Origin: a virus
Lineage: Duplodnaviria; Heunggongvirae; Uroviricota; Caudoviricetes
Reading direction: 5' to 3' (one strand)
IMG/VR virus record: IMGVR_UViG_2713896778_000031
Length of the DNA: 13,867 nucleotides
Shown: piece after piece, positions 1,567-13,656 of the stretch
Numbering within the stretch: position 1 is the stretch's first letter
Layout: each line of letters starts with the position of its first letter
Translations under genes and position numbers: made by a program
Notes under the pieces: model-generated
The model's input: the letters and a program-made list of their open reading frames with translations, nothing else
Databases searched by the model: none
Told to the model about the DNA's origin: nothing

Positions 1567-2301
1567 ATGAACCTTGAAGCTTTACCAAAATATTACTCCC
1601 CAAAATCTCCAAAATTGAGTGATGACGCACCGGCGACAGGCTCGGGTGGTTTAACAATAACAGATGTGATGGCTGCGCAGGGGATGGTGCAGTCGAAAGC
1701 TCCGCTTGGTTTTGCCTTATTCCTGGCAAAAGTTGGTGTTCAGGATCCTCAGTTTGCGATTGAAGGTCTGCTCAATTANNNNNNNNNNNNNNNNNNNNNN
1801 NNNNNNNNNNNNNNNNNNNNNNNNNNNNACCTTGTGAATTTTGCCTTTGCTGATTATTCCAGGTCTGCGGCAAGTAAGGCTCGCTGTGAGTATTGTGCTG
1901 GTACTGGATTTCATAATGTATTGCGCGAAGTGGTGAAACACTCCAGAAGTGGGGAATCTGTTATCAAGGAAGAGTGGGTGAAGGAACTATGTCAGCATTG
2001 CCATGGTAAGGGAGAAGTCAGCACAGCGTGCAGAGGGTGTAAGGGGAAAGGTATTGTCCTGGATGAAAAAAGAACCCGGCTTCATAGCACGCCTGTTTAT
2101 AAGGTTTGTGGGCGTTGCAATGGAAACCGGTTTAGTCGTTTATCAACGACACTGGCGCGGTGTCATGTCCAGAAGCTGGTACCAGACCTGACGGATTATC
2201 AGTGGTACAAAGGATATGCAGATGTCATTGATAAACTGGTTACAAAGTGCTGGCAGGAAGAAGCATATGCTGAGGTGCAATTAAGAAAAGTGACGAGATA
2301 A
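1567..2301 (+). CDS. Late-gene antiterminator Q (phage 82/21-type, QuuQ-like), 244 aa with an internal N-run
   Basis: Position between the DUF968 gene and the lysis cassette; several CxxC pairs (CEYCAGTG, CQHCHGKG, CRGCKGKG, CGRCNG) consistent with a zinc-binding Q protein; size matches Qin QuuQ (about 250 aa). Frame is preserved across the N-run. Confidence 0.7.
   Translation: MNLEALPKYYSPKSPKLSDDAPATGSGGLTITDVMAAQGMVQSKAPLGFALFLAKVGVQDPQFAIEGLLNXXXXXXXXXXXXXXXXXXLVNFAFADYSRSAASKARCEYCAGTGFHNVLREVVKHSRSGESVIKEEWVKELCQHCHGKGEVSTACRGCKGKGIVLDEKRTRLHSTPVYKVCGRCNGNRFSRLSTTLARCHVQKLVPDLTDYQWYKGYADVIDKLVTKCWQEEAYAEVQLRKVTR
1779..1828. other. Run of 50 N (masked bases or assembly gap) inside the Q gene
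   Basis: Directly visible; the coding frame continues unchanged across it. Confidence 0.95.
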
Positions 2302-2440
2302 ATGATTTTCACCGAACGATGGCGACATAACGATTGTATTTTCTAAGGAAACGTGCAAAGAGTTTTCCAATGATGAGCCTTATATGCATACCTGTGGAAA
2401 ATATCAATAAGCCGCGCAGAGTGGTTTTTTTGTGGACATA
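2302..2440 (+). promoter_or_regulatory. Putative late-promoter/qut-like region immediately downstream of Q
   Basis: Lambdoid phages place the late promoter and Q-utilisation site directly after Q (established). A homologous copy of this segment recurs at about 3996-4131 ending in a clean terminator. The exact -35/-10 elements could not be assigned. Confidence 0.3.
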
Positions 2441-2551
2441 AACTTTGTGCAGAACGGTAACCATTATGGTTGCCGTGAATGCAGTTTTTTTACATTGCTG
2501 GCTTTTTTAGATTTGTGTTAGTTATTGATATTAACAAGAAGGGGAAAAGAC

Positions 2552-2653
2552 ATGCTAAAACGGCAGGATATGAAGGAAACGGTTATGCGTGAATGTTCCA
2601 GTGTGATTAACCATATCATCTGGAGAAGCCATCCTGATGCAGGGAAGAGGTAA
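2552..2653 (+). CDS. Small ORF (33 aa), candidate small protein
   Basis: ATG preceded by AAGGGGAAAAG; no recognisable motif; too short to support by composition. Confidence 0.2.
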   Translation: MLKRQDMKETVMRECSSVINHIIWRSHPDAGKR

Positions 2654-3062
2654 CAGTAACGCGCATCAATCAGGCTGCAAATAAATGGCTTACGCCGGAA
2701 ATCTGGCTATCGATGTATTACCGGTTTGTTACCCATGAAGAAAATTAAGGTGATAACGAAACTGATTTTATAGGTGTCTTGTCAGAGTGTTGCGATGAAA
2801 CTTGTGTTGGCAGTGCAGGGAAAACAGTAGGATGAAAATTATAAATTGCTTTAAATGAGCTTGATTTTCCTCATGTTATGAGATATTTGTCTTATATTGC
2901 TGGTTAATTATGAAAGTTTTTGTAAATCTACAGCAATAAAATCCATATTAATTAAAGCACTAGATGCGTTTCTGATTTGTGCATGAAACATACATATCAT
3001 AATGATTAATTGCATCTATAATTACAGATACAGCATTGTGCTGTTAAAAAACTGGAGTCCCC

Positions 3063-3170
3063 ATGAATACATTATATGTAAGTGATTCAAATGAAAAATC
3101 TCATGACAGGAATAAAAACAATGAGGATAGTAAGGGTAAGGATAATAAAAAAGACAACCGGAAAGAGTAA
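3063..3170 (+). CDS. Small ORF (35 aa) encoding a very hydrophilic K/N/D-rich peptide
   Basis: GGAG 5 nt upstream of the ATG; lies in an AT-rich segment; a strong + strand terminator follows at 3377-3405. Overlaps an antisense ORF, so coding status is uncertain. Confidence 0.25.
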   Translation: MNTLYVSDSNEKSHDRNKNNEDSKGKDNKKDNRKE

Positions 3171-3205
3171 ATAATCTTTCCTGCATAAAAATACTAGGGT
3201 GGAAT

Positions 3206-3325
3206 ATGTCAGAACATCCAGATTTTGATGACCGTAAGCCTGATGATGAGCCCGTTGAGCGTCCTGATGAGGGGCAACCATTGAACCCTTTTTCACCGGA
3301 TGATAAAAGAGATCCTATTATTTAG
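3206..3325 (+). CDS. Small ORF (39 aa) encoding an acidic, proline-rich peptide (MSEHPDFDDRKPDDEPVERPDEGQPLNPFSPDDKRDPII)
   Basis: GGGTGG upstream of the ATG; a + strand intrinsic terminator about 50 nt downstream; tandem with the previous small ORF. Confidence 0.3.
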   Translation: MSEHPDFDDRKPDDEPVERPDEGQPLNPFSPDDKRDPII

Positions 3326-3376
3326 ATATAGCAGAATATAGCCGTTTAAAGTAGGTTGTGTTTTGTTGCTATCCTT

Positions 3377-3405
3377 AAACCACCTCCACAGGAGGTGGTT
3401 TTTTA
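3377..3405 (+). terminator. Rho-independent terminator
   Basis: 11-bp perfect stem (AAACCACCTCC / GGAGGTGGTTT) with a 3-nt loop, followed by a T-run. Confidence 0.7.
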
Positions 3406-3461
3406 CTAATGGAACATTAATTGGCAGATGTGATTGTGTACGACTTATGGGAGGCTTAAGA

Positions 3462-3647
3462 TTATTTTCTGCCAATAATAAAACCAAGCGTTAACCCTAT
3501 GCTTAGAGCAACCACCACGCTAGTCAGTGGATAATTTCTAAATTTATCTTTAACGTTTTCTTTGCCTCCCTGCAAAGCATCGTCAGCACATGATGCATAT
3601 TTTTTGACAGTATTAACTATTTCGTTTTCAGATTGATTTGAAGTCAT
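3462..3647 (-). CDS. Small membrane-anchored protein (61 aa) with a DUF883 (ElaB/YqjD)-like C-terminal anchor
   Basis: ATG at 3647 with AGGAC 7 nt upstream; the longer 94-aa form in the ORF track starts at a TTG. The C-terminus NYPLTSVVVALSIGLTLGFIIGRK matches the pattern I recall for ElaB/YqjD tail anchors (hydrophobic helix ending in basic residues). Confidence 0.4.
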   Translation of the reverse strand: MTSNQSENEIVNTVKKYASCADDALQGGKENVKDKFRNYPLTSVVVALSIGLTLGFIIGRK

Positions 3648-3831
3648 GTTTGAAGTCCTGATGTTAAGTGGCTTTTTAATTATAGCAGATATGCTTTCAA
3701 TGATAGGGCGGAGAGTTGTTATTGAGGTGATACTATGACCACTCAATCAACATTACATAAAATGACGTTTACTCCTGTTTGGCACAGTAGCAGAATTTTG
3801 CTTCTGCTACTGAAGTCGCTTTAGCACTAGA

Positions 3832-3995
3832 ATATGCAGATGGATAAAGCAGTTCAGCGTATGTACTGCGTCATGCATATCGGTCTTGCAGATATGACGA
3901 GAAGGGGAGACAAGGTGTGTGTAATGTAGAAGTCTTTAAAGTGCTGTCTGGGATAACTCTATGCTGAAGTGCAATTGATAAAAGTAACACGATAA
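3832..3995 (+). pseudogene. Diverged remnant of a second Q-gene 3-prime end
   Basis: Nucleotide similarity to the end of the intact Q gene (ATATGCAGATG..., AAAGTGCTG..., ATGCTGAAGTGCAATTGATAAAAGTAACACGATAA versus ATGCTGAGGTGCAATTAAGAAAAGTGACGAGATAA). Translates to ...YAEVQLIKVTR-stop, matching the Q C-terminus YAEVQLRKVTR, but has an in-frame stop just upstream. Confidence 0.5.
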
Positions 3996-4101
3996 AGGTT
4001 TTTCAATGAAGATGGTAACGTGATGCTTGCATTTTTCAAAAAAATATGGATAAAGTTTTTTCAACGATGGGCTTTGTATACCCGACGTTAAGAAAAAGTA
4101 G

Positions 4102-4131
4102 AAAACCCGCTGATGAGCGGGTTTTGTGCTT
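4102..4131. terminator. Rho-independent terminator (tR-prime-like), possibly bidirectional
   Basis: 9-bp stem AAAACCCGC / GCGGGTTTT with loop TGATGA, followed by TTTTGTGCTTT; an A-run on the other side gives a T-run on the minus strand. Sits about 110 nt after the Q-remnant stop, where lambdoid tR-prime would be expected. Confidence 0.6.
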
Positions 4132-4417
4132 TAAATGGGGCAATGGTAATGTTGAATCTCATCCCGGGACTCATGTCTGTTAACTTATTATTTAGCTGGT
4201 GACTTGGTTATTTGCCTGATGTTTAAAATGTTTTCTTCCAGTACAATGTCCCTAAACACAATGAGTCTGCTTATTATATTATTAGCAGAGCTATTACGGC
4301 CAAAGTACAGCATAAGCTTTTAAAGCCAATCAACCAGTCATCAAGACAGACGGGGTTATTCATAAAAACTCTCCATGTGTGATCCGATGGGGCCTGAAAT
4401 TAAAGCTTTAATATAGC

Positions 4418-4630
4418 TCATGAAAGGTAAACATTGGCAGCTGAAGGGCCACGCAGACCATTTATCCGGCAAAATTCCACGCGTAATCCGGTGGTAATTT
4501 CTTCTGCATCGCGGAGATTGAGCGCTGAAACATGAAGCTGGACATCGATACGACCATCGGATGGGGTGATAAGACCCTTGCCGCTTTTGCCGTCAAAGGT
4601 TTTGACAATTCCTGTCATTTTACGGGACAA
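4418..4630 (-). CDS. cspF: Cold-shock-domain protein, CspF/CspH-type (70 aa)
   Basis: [13 protein letters not shown]...[16 protein letters not shown] is a CspA-family fold with the TFD variant typical of CspF/CspH; divergent from cspB as in the Qin prophage. Confidence 0.8.
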
Positions 4631-4884
4631 AAAAATTCCTTAACACTGATAACTTGGCGCACTATACACACGTTCCTGAAGAAAGCTATAGTGTTTTGAT
4701 GGGGTTGAAGATGGCTGGATGTCTAAAATAAACATTGCTTCATATGTTCAACTATGCGTTAATGATTGCGTCGGTTTGAAGAACAGACGATATACGAAGT
4801 AGTTTACTAAAGCAGTTCTCATTTCAGGTGTTATTCACTTATTCCTTCTTTGAGTCTCTCCAATTAAGTACGAAGTCGTTTCTG

Positions 4885-4930
4885 TTATGCAAACCATTTA
4901 TGCCGAAAGGCTCAAGTTAAGGAATGTAGA
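4885..4930 (+). promoter_or_regulatory. Conserved csp-type 5-prime UTR element upstream of cspB
   Basis: GCCGAAAGGCTCAAGTTAAGGAATGTAGA directly before the ATG closely resembles the conserved cspA-family leader/RBS region as I recall it. Confidence 0.5.
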
Positions 4931-5146
4931 ATGTCAAATAAAATGACTGGTTTAGTAAAATGGTTTAACGCTGATAAAGGTTTCGGCTTTATTTCTCCTG
5001 TTGATGGTAGTAAAGATGTGTTTGTGCATTTTTCTGCGATTCAGAATGATAATTATCGAACCTTATTTGAAGGTCAAAAGGTTACCTTCTCTATAGAGAG
5101 TGGTGCTAAAGGTCCTGCAGCAGTAAATGTCATCATTACTGATTAA
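4931..5146 (+). CDS. cspB: Cold shock protein CspB-type (71 aa)
   Basis: [21 protein letters not shown]...VFVHFSAIQ carries the RNP1/RNP2 motifs of CspA-family proteins; paired divergently with cspF and located beside the lysis cassette as in Qin. Confidence 0.8.
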
Positions 5147-5257
5147 AATTCATCGCTCGTCTGTATACGATAACGAAGAAGGCTGATGCCTGAGTAGAGA
5201 TACGGACAGAGTAGTGAATATTGGATCTCTTTAATAAAAAGTAAGGAGGTCCAATAC

Positions 5258-7455: not shown

Positions 7456-7816
7456 GGTAATATTAAATCGGAACATTTACATCGCGGAATGTAAAATTTA
7501 AATAAAAAGGACTCTTCCATGAGCCAAAATTCCTGAAATCTTAAGGGTAAGAAAAGGTCTTAATCAGAATGACACGTTTTATTAATAAATAAAGCTATTC
7601 TTTCATTGCTGTGTTTTTCTTTACAAAAGTAATCCTTGCTATGGGTGGTTAATCATGCGTTAATGGTGTTCTGGTTTGTTACAAATTTATCTGAAGCAGT
7701 CATTGTTATAATTTTATTATTTGTACCTCTTGGGATTTCCTTGTTGGTTTTTCTCTCTGATATTTTTTTTTCGGACCATTCTGCCCAAGGGCTAATTTCT
7801 TCAAAAGGTAATAATT

Positions 7817-8029
7817 ATGTCTAACAAAATGACTGGTTTAGTGAAATGGTTTAACCCTGAAAAAGGTTTTGGTTTCATCACGCCGAAAGATGGCAGCAAA
7901 GATGTGTTTGTCCATTTCTCAGCAATTCAGAGCAACGATTTCAAAACATTAACTGAGAATCAGGAAGTTGAATTTGGTATTGAGAACGGACCTAAAGGTC
8001 CTGCCGCTGTTCATGTAGTGGCGCTTTGA
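7817..8029 (+). CDS. cspI: Cold shock protein CspI-type (70 aa)
   Basis: [38 protein letters not shown]...; third CspA-family paralogue, located downstream of the lysis cassette as in Qin. Confidence 0.8.
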
Positions 8030-8057
8030 GGTAGACAATATTACAAACCATATTCAC

Positions 8058-11045: not shown

Positions 11046-12083
11046 ATGGGTTTTTCATCAGCCCGAAATTTGGGAAGGGACATATCGGCAGGATTTTCCC
11101 CACCACGTCGCATGCCGATTTCGGAGGCTGTTAAAAAATTCATGCGTGTTCCCAAGGGGGCTGGTAACTCGGTGCCATGGGATCCTGAACTGACACCCTA
11201 CATCATTGAGCCCATGAACTGCCTGGCATCGCGTGAATACGATGCGGTGATTTTTGTTGGTCCTGCGCGAACAGGGAAGACCATTGGTCTGATCGATGGA
11301 TGGATTGTCTATACCATCGTTTGCGATCCTTCGGACATGCTCGTTGTGCAGATGACCGAAGATAAGGCCCGCGAGCATTCTAAAAAGCGCCTCGACAGAA
11401 CGTTCAGAAGCAGTGCGGCGGTAAAGAAAAGAATGAGTCCACGTCGTAACGACAATAATGTCCATGATAAGACGTTCAGGGATGGCTCGTTCCTTAAAAT
11501 TGGTTGGCCCTCGGTCAACATTATGTCGTCGTCGGATTACCGGTTTGTCGCCTTAACCGATTACGACCGTTTTCCGGAGAATATCGACAGCGAGGGTGAT
11601 GGTTTCTCCCTGGCCTCAAAACGTACCACCACATTTATGTCCGCCGGGATGACTCTGGTGGAGAGCTCGCCGGGACGTGACATCTGCGACAGCAAATGGC
11701 GACGTAAGTCGCCTCATGAAGCGCCACCGACGACTGGTATTCTTTCCCTTTACAATCGTGGTGACCGCCGCCGCTGGTACTGGTCATGTCCGCACTGCGG
11801 TGAATATTTTCAGCCAGCCATGGATGCCATGACCGGCTACCGTAATGAACCGGATCCCTTTAAAGCCAGTGAGGCGGCGTATCTACTTTGCCCGCACTGC
11901 AGCGGCATTATCACTGCGGAGAAAAAGCGTGAGCTCAATAGTGCAGGAGTCTGGTTGCGTGAAGGTCAGGTCATTGATCGTAACGGCAACGTTTCCGGTG
12001 AACCGCGCCGCTCCCGTATCGCCAGTTTCTTGGATGTAGGGTACATTTCTTACCTGTTTGTATGTTCTGGTGTCGTTTCATAG
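11046..12083 (+). pseudogene. Terminase large subunit (lambda gpA-like), N-terminal ATPase portion only; truncated at about 12042
   Basis: AGGAGG RBS; Walker A-like VGPARTGKT; CPHCGEYFQ matches lambda gpA CPHCGEEQY; GVWLREG aligns to gpA GIWTRDG. About 330 gpA-like residues are followed by 14 unrelated residues and a stop, against 641 aa for gpA, so the C-terminal nuclease half is missing. Confidence 0.75.
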
Positions 12084-12200
12084 TCTTTTCAATGAGTTGT
12101 GATTTTATGAGTTTCCTCTCTTTGCTTGATAATGAGTTAGTTTATCGCTTGTTATTGGCTTGAATGGACTACATGACGGACTAAAAAATGAGGGCGATAG

Positions 12201-13439
12201 ATGTCGGTAAAGCCATTAACCGTGACTGAAGTTAAGGGGATGAAACCACGTGAAAAGGACTATGCCGTTTATGATGGGTTCGGTTTATTGCTGAATGTGA
12301 GTAAAGCCGGTGGGAAAGTGTGGCGTTTCCGTTATAGCCATCCGATAACGAAGAAACGGCAGACATACACGATAGGACGTTTTCCTGAATTCTCACTCGC
12401 GGAAGCACGGGAAGTACGTGATGAACTTCGGCGAATGATTGCACGTGGAGTTGATCCAGTGACGGAGAAGAAAAATCGTAAAATTGAGATGTCACTAAAA
12501 AATCTACAGACATTTGAAGCTGTTGCTAATGCATGGTTCGCTTTTAAAAAGGGATCTGAATTGCGGAAACCTACGCTGTATAATATCGAATATGAAGTAT
12601 ACAAATATCTTGTTCCTTTCTTTGGTAAGTACAGTATAGAAAAAATTACAGCACCAGTAGCTATTAATGCTCTGGATGCCGTATCCGATAAGAATGCGTT
12701 GCAAAAAAAATTAATATCAAGATTAAATGAAATTATGAATTATGCTGTAAATTGTGGAGCATTGAAAGCAAATCCATTACTTAAGATAAAGACTGCATTC
12801 ACAGGAAAGAAAAATAAATCATTAGCAGCACTACCTGTTGAAAGATTGCCTGAATTTCTGAGCTGGTGGGATAGTGTGCCTCATACCTATCAAATAGCTC
12901 ATAATGCACTTTTATTCCAGATATTGACAATGGTCAGGCCAGGTGAGGCGATTAAAGCAGAGTGGTCAGAGATTGATTTTGATTCTGGCTTGTGGATTAT
13001 CCCCGCGCATAAAATGAAATGCCATCGTGAACATGTTGTTCCCTTGTCATCACAGGCTATTAGTATCCTCAGAACAATGCAGGAAATAAAAAGAGGGCGT
13101 TATGTGTTTTTTTCCTCCAGAACAAAAGATGCGCCTATGGGGAGGAATACTATCAAGACCCCAATTGCTGCCAGTAAGTTCAAAGGGATTGTAACGTTAC
13201 ATGGTTTTCGTTCAATGTGGAGTACGCTTTTAAATGAGGAGGGATTTAACCCCGATGTAATCGAGGCTGCATTGGCGCATAAAAGTGGTGATAAAATAAG
13301 AGATATTTATAATAGAACTATTTATCTAGAACAGCGTAAGATCATGATGCAATGGGTCGGTGATTTTTTTGATGATGCGAGAAAAGGGGTAATTAATAGA
13401 TCCGGTGGTATGAAAGGTTTAAGAGTAGTAAATGGTTGA
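12201..13439 (+). CDS. Tyrosine recombinase, P4-type integrase (412 aa)
   Basis: N-terminal DUF4102-like arm domain (LTVTEVKGMKPREKDYAVYDGFGLLLNV...WRFRY) and a C-terminal catalytic region with HGFRS, LAH and a tyrosine near the end (IYNRTIY), typical of P4-family integrases; GAGGG RBS. Confidence 0.9.
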   Translation: MSVKPLTVTEVKGMKPREKDYAVYDGFGLLLNVSKAGGKVWRFRYSHPITKKRQTYTIGRFPEFSLAEAREVRDELRRMIARGVDPVTEKKNRKIEMSLKNLQTFEAVANAWFAFKKGSELRKPTLYNIEYEVYKYLVPFFGKYSIEKITAPVAINALDAVSDKNALQKKLISRLNEIMNYAVNCGALKANPLLKIKTAFTGKKNKSLAALPVERLPEFLSWWDSVPHTYQIAHNALLFQILTMVRPGEAIKAEWSEIDFDSGLWIIPAHKMKCHREHVVPLSSQAISILRTMQEIKRGRYVFFSSRTKDAPMGRNTIKTPIAASKFKGIVTLHGFRSMWSTLLNEEGFNPDVIEAALAHKSGDKIRDIYNRTIYLEQRKIMMQWVGDFFDDARKGVINRSGGMKGLRVVNG

Positions 13440-13452
13440 GGAGGTTCAGCAA

Positions 13453-13656
13453 ATGAATACCAATGAAGATATTTTATTTACTAAAGACGTAATGAAAATC
13501 TTGCGATATGGAGCAATGAGTGCATTCATCAATTTCTGGAAAGATGAGAATAATGGTTTTCCTCAGCCGTTCAGAATTGGACGACGACATACCTGGCACC
13601 GTAGAGATGTAGAAGCATGGTTAGATAAACAACGAGAACAGGCCAATCCCCACTAA
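13453..13656 (+). CDS. AlpA-family transcriptional regulator/excisionase-like protein (67 aa)
   Basis: GGAGG 8 nt upstream of the ATG at 13453; small HTH protein ending in the AlpA-like motif ...HRRDVEAWL; sits directly downstream of the integrase. Confidence 0.7.
   Translation: MNTNEDILFTKDVMKILRYGAMSAFINFWKDENNGFPQPFRIGRRHTWHRRDVEAWLDKQREQANPH

Follow-up and report, generated by a model that had tools for sequence, protein, structure and literature searches.

The window, by which we mean the whole stretch of 13,867 nt that we analysed (IMG/VR virus record IMGVR_UViG_2713896778_000031, Caudoviricetes), is 100% identical to a Qin-like defective prophage of Escherichia coli O121 str. RM8352. 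Its genes follow the order of the K-12 prophage Qin: rem', ydfU, the antiterminator gene Q (ydfT), the region studied here, ynfS, cspF, cspB, ynfU, essQ, ydfR, rrrQ, rzpQ and cspI. In the region studied, the joint between Q and the late promoter-terminator module (PR'-tR') is found twice. The first copy joins an intact Q gene to a decayed promoter and terminator, and the second joins a decayed Q tail to a promoter and terminator of the kind found in related phages. We think it likely that this arrangement is a recombination scar whose two copies have kept complementary halves, and that copy 2 provides the working late promoter, Q site and terminator. What we observed directly are the repeat, the patterns of conservation, the identities of the pseudogenes, the fold energies and the distribution among genomes. 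The prophage is defective: in the RM8352 annotation it carries insertion sequence (IS) elements, ydfR has an internal stop and the terminase gene is truncated. Two runs of N mask the window at 1779-1828, inside Q, and at ~960-1010; the 50 N of the former stand for 68 real bases, so that positions before this run are offset by 18 from those of the source genome.

The gene Q (1567-2301, plus strand), of the ydfT/quuQ type, is intact. Its true length is 250 aa; the open reading frame (ORF) looks 6 codons short owing to the N-run. The gene is identical (100%) to the one annotated as ydfT in O121 RM8352. Its product matches the Pfam family PF03589 (Antiterm) with E 1.3e-52, the only other Pfam match being a DnaJ-type zinc finger. 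Additionally, it is 33% identical to lambda Q end to end (BLASTP, E 5e-38) and matches the lambda Q chains of PDB 7UBM (E 2.9e-34). Three unrelated Q families are distinguished, those of lambda (PF03589), phage 82 (PF06323) and phage 21 (PF06530) (PMC9388147). By its sequence matches, the Q protein of the window is a member of the lambda family, which rules out the families of phages 82 and 21. Lambda is therefore the proper comparison, and phages 82 and 21, whose modules had been proposed for this purpose in the preliminary description, are the wrong yardstick. An insertion of 48 aa, which brings in two further CxxC pairs, sets the zinc-ribbon arm of the window protein apart from that of lambda Q. 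We also considered the pause layout of phage 82, in which an extended -10 element is followed by GCC at +15 to +17 and the pause occurs at +25 (PMC5001585). This layout does not fit, the leader here starting with AACGATGGG at +1.

The stretch 2244-2432 aligns with 3938-4128 as a collinear direct repeat of 192 columns with 132 identities (69%) and 4 gaps (BLAST, E 9e-24). Its ungapped core comprises 73 nt that are 77% identical (repeat family D2). The local alignment score of 64 is far above those of 1000 dinucleotide-preserving shuffles (10.9 +/- 1.5, maximum 17), and the similarity is thus not a chance effect of AT-rich DNA. The preliminary description had about 160 nt of the Q end and about 130 nt downstream recurring; the repeat itself stands, but only the last 58 nt of Q, from 2244 on, take part in it. 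In the second copy this part translates as KCCLG*LYAEVQLIKVTR, compared with KCWQEEAYAEVQLRKVTR at the end of Q, and the in-frame TAA at 3954-3956 is indeed the stop just upstream of a Q C-terminus that had been reported. The ATATGCAGATG block, which had served as an anchor of the repeat, does not belong to it. It lies at 2211-2224 and 3829-3842, 20 nt upstream of the repeat in copy 1 and 95 nt in copy 2, and is thus not collinear with it. Its score is marginal, being reached by 21 of the 1000 shuffles (BLAST E 0.21), and the second occurrence sits inside a rha pseudogene, where it encodes ..EYADDKAVQR.. in the rha relatives. The resemblance between the two blocks is a coincidence. Within each copy, the Q 3' end and stop region furthermore resembles the promoter region 58 nt downstream (D1 repeats, 2276-2373 and 3970-4067, 60-78% over 40 nt). 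This self-resemblance is common to the whole family of modules and may go back to an old tandem duplication or to an effect of composition.

To describe the family, we aligned the Q 3' end and ~170 nt downstream of 2H10, K-12 Qin, Tritos, SfV, Ayreon and two Salmonella phages, with lambda added afterwards; invariant columns are those unchanged in these seven relatives. The family module reads TTGCAT-N17-TAAAAT/TAAGAT-N6-AACGATGGG-CTTTGTAT and continues into a strong hairpin and its U tract; it is collinear with lambda PR' (TTGACT-N17-TAAATT-N6-AACGATGGG). Together with two IMG/VR variants, nine module sequences share TTGCAT-N17-TA(A/G)(A/G)AT-N6-AA(C/T)GATGGG and then a strong terminator. The module pattern is found at exactly one site in each relative, and in the window in copy 2 only, at 4027. 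In lambda PR', GGG occupies +7 to +9 and the sigma-70-dependent pause occurs at +16/17 (PMC5001585); AACGAT therefore occupies +1 to +6. In the interval that separates the end of Q from the -35 hexamer, the relatives have a short inverted repeat, TCGCC-GAAGAT-GGCGA (718-736 in locus L029), and lambda has one with other arms at the same place (TTGCCA-CGGA-TGGCAA); in the window it is damaged in both copies (2309-2326 and 4003-4019). We also looked for a hairpin conserved within the initial 28 nt of the PR' transcript; RNAalifold gave one-sided changes only and no compensatory pairs. Rfam, searched with the whole window at gathering thresholds and with 2200-4450 at E up to 1, matched neither copy and returned cspA thermoregulators outside the region as well as one chance snoRNA match. 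A generic promoter scan reported no more sites than in shuffled sequence and missed PR', because the -35 hexamer is weak.

Copy 2 opens with a Q relic (3938-4026, plus strand), which by translation consists of the last 19 codons, interrupted by the internal TAA and closed by a stop codon at 3993-3995, and of a diverged spacer at 3996-4026. The fragment 3938-3995 is not a gene. Next comes the late promoter PR' (4027-4071, plus strand) with the -35 hexamer TTGCAT at 4027-4032, an 18-nt spacer, the -10 hexamer TAAAGT at 4051-4056 and a predicted start near 4063, collinear with lambda PR' and with all relatives. The predicted sigma-dependent pause element, AACGAT GGG at 4063-4071, is identical to that of lambda. 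The spacer, presumed from the sequence to hold the Q-binding element, has the family consensus save one extra A. The terminator tR' (4095-4132, plus strand; inverted repeat I6) is formed by a core hairpin at 4102-4125 and a U tract. This hairpin folds at -23.9 kcal/mol with a z of -8.3, and none of 200 shuffles was as stable, in full agreement with the clean terminator seen earlier at 4102-4131. The whole leader folds at -30.5 kcal/mol (z -6.6).

The second copy is also continuous with the late region of K-12 Qin. From 3938 it runs into 863 nt that are 96.6% identical to Qin, the alignment starting within the 3' end of ydfT. The differences are very unevenly spread: 25 fall in 3938-4027 (28%) and 4 in the 773 positions of 4028-4800 (0.5%; Fisher p 2e-22). 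The leader and terminator are identical to those of K-12 Qin, and the module 4027-4131 differs at 2 positions. In the last 12 codons of the Q relic, read directly, the differences from K-12 Q are mostly synonymous, which suggests that the donor allele diverged while still functional.

The first copy (2244-2432, plus strand), as defined by its alignment with 3938-4128, contains the 58 nt with which Q ends and, after a spacer of 32 nt, the decayed remains of a late-promoter module together with a weak hairpin. In the family alignment the promoter relic (2334-2377, plus strand) has TTGTAT in the -35 position (2334-2339), AAAGAG in the -10 position (2357-2362) and AATGATGAG in the pause position (2369-2377). 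It thus reads TTGTAT-N17-AAAGAG-N6-AATGATGAG and does not match the family pattern. The hexamer AAAGAG has 2 of 6 matches, the T at -12 and the T at -7 both being lost, and the alignment shows departures from the family sequence in about half of the spacer, the site of lambda Q binding. In the pause position the copy has AATGAT GAG; AATGAT also occurs in copy 2 of two other carriers of the arrangement (L013 and L026), and only copy 1 has GAG where the others have GGG. The terminator relic (2409-2434, plus strand), listed as a weak terminator-like site by the scan for such sites, has a 7-bp stem with G-U pairs and then U7. Its hairpin (2409-2427) folds at -8.5 kcal/mol (z -1.0), with 35 of 200 shuffles as stable. 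The earlier remark that the first copy has a degenerate hairpin only thus holds, the fold being no better than that of shuffled sequence.

The losses in the two copies are complementary. In the promoter core, from the -35 hexamer to GGG, 34 columns are invariant, of which copy 1 departs at 11 and copy 2 at 1; in the Q 3' end, with 45 such columns, copy 1 departs at none and copy 2 at 9. Fisher's test gives p 0.003 for each comparison between the copies and 3e-5 within copy 1. The same step is seen when the window is compared with SfV, 2H10, Ayreon and a Salmonella phage (Sal118970). Divergence is 0-10% in Q up to its stop codon and climbs from there, through 12-22% (spacer) and 31-37% (promoter core), to 40-49% (terminator region). 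That copy 1 has lost promoter positions which are invariant in the family suggests relaxed constraint, and we take this copy, judged by its sequence, to be a relic capable at most of weak termination.

The distribution among genomes points in the same direction. The whole arrangement (1840-4700) is present in 40 of 5426 complete E. coli genomes, and two complete phage genomes, those of PhiR63_1 and HannyBb, share the double arrangement with 99.5-99.6% identity. A marker sequence for copy 1 is present on 16 IMG/VR contig stretches, and wherever a fetched IMG/VR locus spans both sites the markers for copy 1 and for the Q relic occur together. The copy 1 sequence type (at least 99% identical) is restricted to the 40 E. 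coli genomes and two phages that have the whole arrangement, with nothing found at 80-99%. Among phages, the 5426 E. coli genomes and IMG/VR, we detected neither a promoter of the copy 1 type as the sole late promoter nor an intact Q ending in ...QLIKVTR. The phages 2H10, PhiR42_1 and Tritos as well as K-12 Qin have a single Q/PR' joint, followed by cspF/cspB. Copy 2 follows the allelic variation of the module across carriers (TAAAAT/TAAGAT, AACGAT/AATGAT), whereas copy 1 is frozen together with the block. The -10 hexamer of copy 2 is TAAGAT or TAAAAT in variants of ~97% identity, and in PhiR63_1 and the IMG/VR loci of ~99.6-99.9% identity copy 2 is canonical, with N17 and TAAAAT. Because copy 2 is canonical in complete phages and tracks the variation of the module, and because the copy 1 type was never found alone in the collections searched, we regard copy 2 as the probable working site. 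The question of which copy is functional, left unclear in the preliminary description, thereby receives a provisional answer from the sequence: copy 2, which matches the family consensus and lambda PR'.

The copy 2 of the window itself departs slightly from this canonical form. Within 4038-4056, an extra A lengthens the spacer from 17 to 18 nt and TAAAAT has become TAAAGT, and among the carriers compared both changes are seen only in the window-identical allele of the O121 type. Against carrier L012, the window has 3 differences over 2001 nt, two of them in the 30-nt promoter, which would be expected by chance with a probability of ~7e-4. The changes may reflect late transcription that was tuned down in a defective prophage.

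We next turn to the block between the copies (2302-4026). In carriers L013 and L026 it differs by ~1-2% from that of the window, apart from a ~32-nt deletion at ~2677-2699 in L013, and the flanks differ far more, the Q alleles by 8-9% and the copy 2 modules by ~14%. From these sharp boundaries of divergence we conclude that everything between the end of Q and the copy 2 -35 hexamer behaves as one discrete block with exchangeable canonical flanks.

The spacer, decayed promoter and decayed terminator at 2302-2434 (plus strand; family alignment) open the block. They are followed on the plus strand by two scraps, both identified by local BLAST against SfV and Ayreon and by matches in the phage database. 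The first (2435-2582) is a late-leader scrap of the SfV/mEp460 type that resembles the region before SfV orf47, and the second (2585-2653) resembles a piece of SfV orf48 and of the methylase-like gene of Ayreon. In SfV and Ayreon the position homologous to the copy 1 hairpin is annotated as a terminator. A ren pseudogene (2635-2821, plus strand) retains the 3' two-thirds of the gene with a frameshift and stops; it matches the ren gene of E. coli GN04592 with 76% identity over 125 nt (E 1e-20), and tblastn finds it in two frames with stops (E 2e-8). At the other end lies a rha pseudogene (3723-3917, plus strand), corresponding to codons 1-61 with in-frame stops and containing the ATATGCAGATG block. 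Over 197 nt it shares 79% identity with the rha genes of PhiR26_1 and E. coli GN04592 (E ~1e-40), and the tblastn alignment reads MTTQSTLHKMTFTPVWH..*H*NMQMDKAVQR.

The cargo between these remnants (2822-3722) is specific to the block by its distribution, being found in full solely in the 40 E. coli genomes and two phages that have the whole arrangement. Its leader is AT-rich (28-30% GC). On the plus strand the cargo contains two ORFs for very hydrophilic products of 35 aa (3063-3170) and 39 aa (3206-3325); Pfam and PHROGs gave no matches for these or for the other small ORFs. A hairpin terminator at 3377-3406 folds at -17.3 kcal/mol (z -3.1), and on the minus strand 3462-3647 encodes a 61-aa tail-anchored protein. 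Upstream of this gene an extended -10 element, TGcTATAAT, at 3687-3679 (minus strand) and an AGGA can be read directly from the sequence, and the gene appears to have its own promoter. Relatives of the protein are found in E. coli only, and it matches phrog_11629 (function unknown). The label DUF883-like that it had been given could not be maintained: DUF883_C scores 12.3 bits (E 0.14) against a cut-off of 27 bits and covers residues 40-61 only. What is present is a resemblance in the C-terminal glycine-zipper tail, not membership of the DUF883 / ElaB-YqjD family. In PhiR26_1 and GN04592 the ren-rha interval holds a minus-strand accessory gene annotated as PD-lambda-1 or DUF4041. Since the cargo lies between ren and rha remnants, it occupies a known slot for accessory genes in the nin region.

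The block looks like the collapsed junction of two phage segments and not like a gene cassette that was cleanly dropped in. The notion of an accessory module inserted or exchanged at the Q joint is therefore partly right. There is extra DNA relative to close relatives, its boundaries are sharp and recombination was probably at work, but around ~0.9 kb of cargo the block is a patchwork of lambdoid scraps and no clean cassette. Since the order is late-leader scraps, ren, cargo, rha and Q tail, we propose that the likeliest origin would be a join of the late-leader region of one lambdoid genome with the ren-to-Q (nin) region of another. This join could have come about by unequal or illegitimate recombination between co-resident or tandem genomes, and a later deletion would have run from rha into Q. 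Homologous exchange in Q and in the PR'/cspF region may then have spread the block or refreshed its flanks. We also asked if 2H10 is a deletion product of the window arrangement and rejected this, its spacer having family-consensus bases where both window copies differ.

Several other explanations have to be weighed against a decayed copy 1 and a working copy 2. Virtually no room is left for the idea that the similarity arose by chance in AT-rich intergenic DNA and that there is no true second copy. The region does have 35-42% GC and the ATATGCAGATG anchor is indeed a coincidence, but the repeat statistics given above, together with the 863-nt match to K-12 Qin from 3938, refute it. Both copies could instead be active as tandem Q-responsive promoters, with polymerase from copy 1 transcribing the cargo and the genes downstream and copy 2 serving as a second loading site. 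Copy 1 does retain TTG at -35, the N17 spacing, AATGAT at the pause position, which is an accepted variant of the pause element in other carriers, and a hairpin with a U7 tail, and it is nearly unchanged among carriers (1 difference in 101 nt). However, AAAGAG lacks the T at -12 and the T at -7, around half of the Q-binding spacer differs and 11 of the 34 invariant positions are changed. The low variation of copy 1 is that of the neighbouring pseudogenes (0.5-2%) and so indicates no special constraint. We consider tandem activity unlikely.

Alternatively, copy 1 might be an undecayed promoter matched to a Q allele of other specificity, whose tail would be the fragment at 3938-3995, and it would then have been orphaned here after the block had brought it in from some divergent lambdoid phage that is not yet sampled. 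This would fit the sharp divergence boundaries at ~2302 and ~4027 and the mostly synonymous differences in the last 12 codons of the Q relic. It is nevertheless quite unlikely: no phage, E. coli genome or IMG/VR contig has the copy 1 type alone or an intact Q of the ...QLIKVTR type, AAAGAG is poor for sigma-70 whatever the specificity of Q, and the canonical core is kept even in the Salmonella relatives. We give little credence, too, to a more adventurous proposal, according to which the 1.7-kb block is a portable cassette that uses its decayed promoter-terminator and Q-tail ends as homology arms, moves cargo from the ren-rha hotspot between Q and PR' and has it expressed with the early genes, the promoter changes of the O121 allele having been selected to silence the Q-driven lysis genes.

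Some points weigh against the preferred reading of a relic at copy 1 and a working site at copy 2. Promoter strength was judged by consensus and conservation, and what we say on promoter activity, on pausing and Q loading and on the succession of recombination events is deduced. The window copy 2 has two changes that are expected to weaken it, the 18-nt spacer and TAAAGT, so that possibly both copies fall short of full activity in this defective prophage. Copy 1 retains a -10-like AATGAT and a U7-tailed hairpin and may have weak activity or cause partial termination. The sharp boundaries fit the import of a diverged allele as well as decay in place with exchange of the flanks, and the 28-45% divergence of the relic ends may accordingly have arisen in place or been brought by a diverged donor. 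We assume PhiR63_1 and HannyBb to be plaque-forming because they were deposited as complete phage genomes with a named host; a literature search on PhiR63_1, on HannyBb or on a Qin late promoter returned nothing relevant. Finally, lambda Q acts preferentially in cis, which makes it unusual for the Q gene and its site to lie 1.76 kb apart.

If copy 2 is the working site, RNA polymerase would start there near 4063 and pause at about +16/17 through binding of sigma-70 to AACGAT/GGG. Q made from the gene 1.76 kb upstream would be loaded at the paused polymerase, and the modified polymerase would read through tR' into cspB, essQ, ydfR, rrrQ and rzpQ. Without Q, a short RNA of ~65-70 nt, made constitutively in lysogens, would end at tR'. 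This predicted terminated transcript (4063-4131) has an A-rich stretch of the A-R-N-like kind, AAGAAAAAGUAGAAAAC, before the strong terminator with its U tail, and K-12 Qin has the identical transcript sequence with no RNA gene annotated there. A regulatory role of the short RNA is a matter of speculation. With copy 2 as the working promoter, the cargo would precede the late promoter in use and belong to the early-right transcription unit.

For the annotation of these Qin-like prophages and of PhiR63_1 and HannyBb, our data suggest that the late promoter and Q site belong at ~4027-4131 and not directly after Q. Small ORFs that are called across 2300-2650 and 3735-4180 in some phage records would be pseudogene scraps or regulatory DNA. 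In PhiR63_1, for example, coding sequences annotated as "hypothetical protein" (L002 3470-3753 and 4896-5343) lie on the decayed promoter-terminator, the rha pseudogene and the PR'-tR' module and are probably not genes. The region is a clear example of complementary decay after the duplication of a regulatory joint. It also indicates that accessory DNA may be able to sit between Q and its site of action, 1.76 kb apart, which has a modest bearing on the cis preference of lambda Q.

Two observations concern other parts of the window. The Rfam matches outside the region are cspA thermoregulator 5' leaders at 4770-5193 (158.9 bits) and 7670-8056 (112.2 bits), upstream of the cold-shock genes cspB and cspI. 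The large terminase gene (within 11046-13656) is truncated at ~12083 and directly followed by a gene for a P4-type tyrosine integrase (12201-13439) and one for an AlpA-like regulator (13432-13656). This suggests that another integrative element was inserted into the packaging genes or replaced them.

In comparison with known systems, the arrangement is an ordinary product of lambdoid mosaicism and implies no new mechanism. Copy 2 corresponds to the lambda late module (Q, PR', tR' and 6S RNA) in having the identical CAACGATGGG at the start site, a -10 hexamer of the TAAAnT type, a spacing of 17-18 nt and a strong intrinsic terminator. The terminated PR' RNA of lambda has 194 nt, whereas ~65-70 nt are predicted here, and the module lies 1.76 kb from the Q gene instead of ~45 nt, with a decayed duplicate in the normal position. 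Unlike K-12 Qin, 2H10, PhiR42_1 and Tritos with their single joint, the window has an extra 1.7-kb block and a duplicated joint. In its presence and absence among similar phages, its sharp boundaries and its AT-rich cargo the block resembles the mosaic joints and the moron cargo of lambdoid phages, among them the pR' region that varies in Shiga toxin (Stx) phages (PMC6266700). The likeness to morons extends to the 61-aa gene with a promoter read from the sequence and to the hairpin terminator at 3377-3406. The cargo sits where PhiR26_1 and GN04592 carry defence genes, in the ren-rha hotspot. Classical morons and stx are part of the late operon, past tR'; in contrast, the cargo of the window is found upstream of the probable functional PR' and is flanked by relics of the joint. 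In Stx phages, termination of the PR' transcript at tR' yields the regulatory small RNA StxS (PMC7547250). The short PR' RNA predicted for copy 2, with its A-rich stretch, terminator and U tail, resembles StxS and other Hfq-binding small RNAs in outline only.

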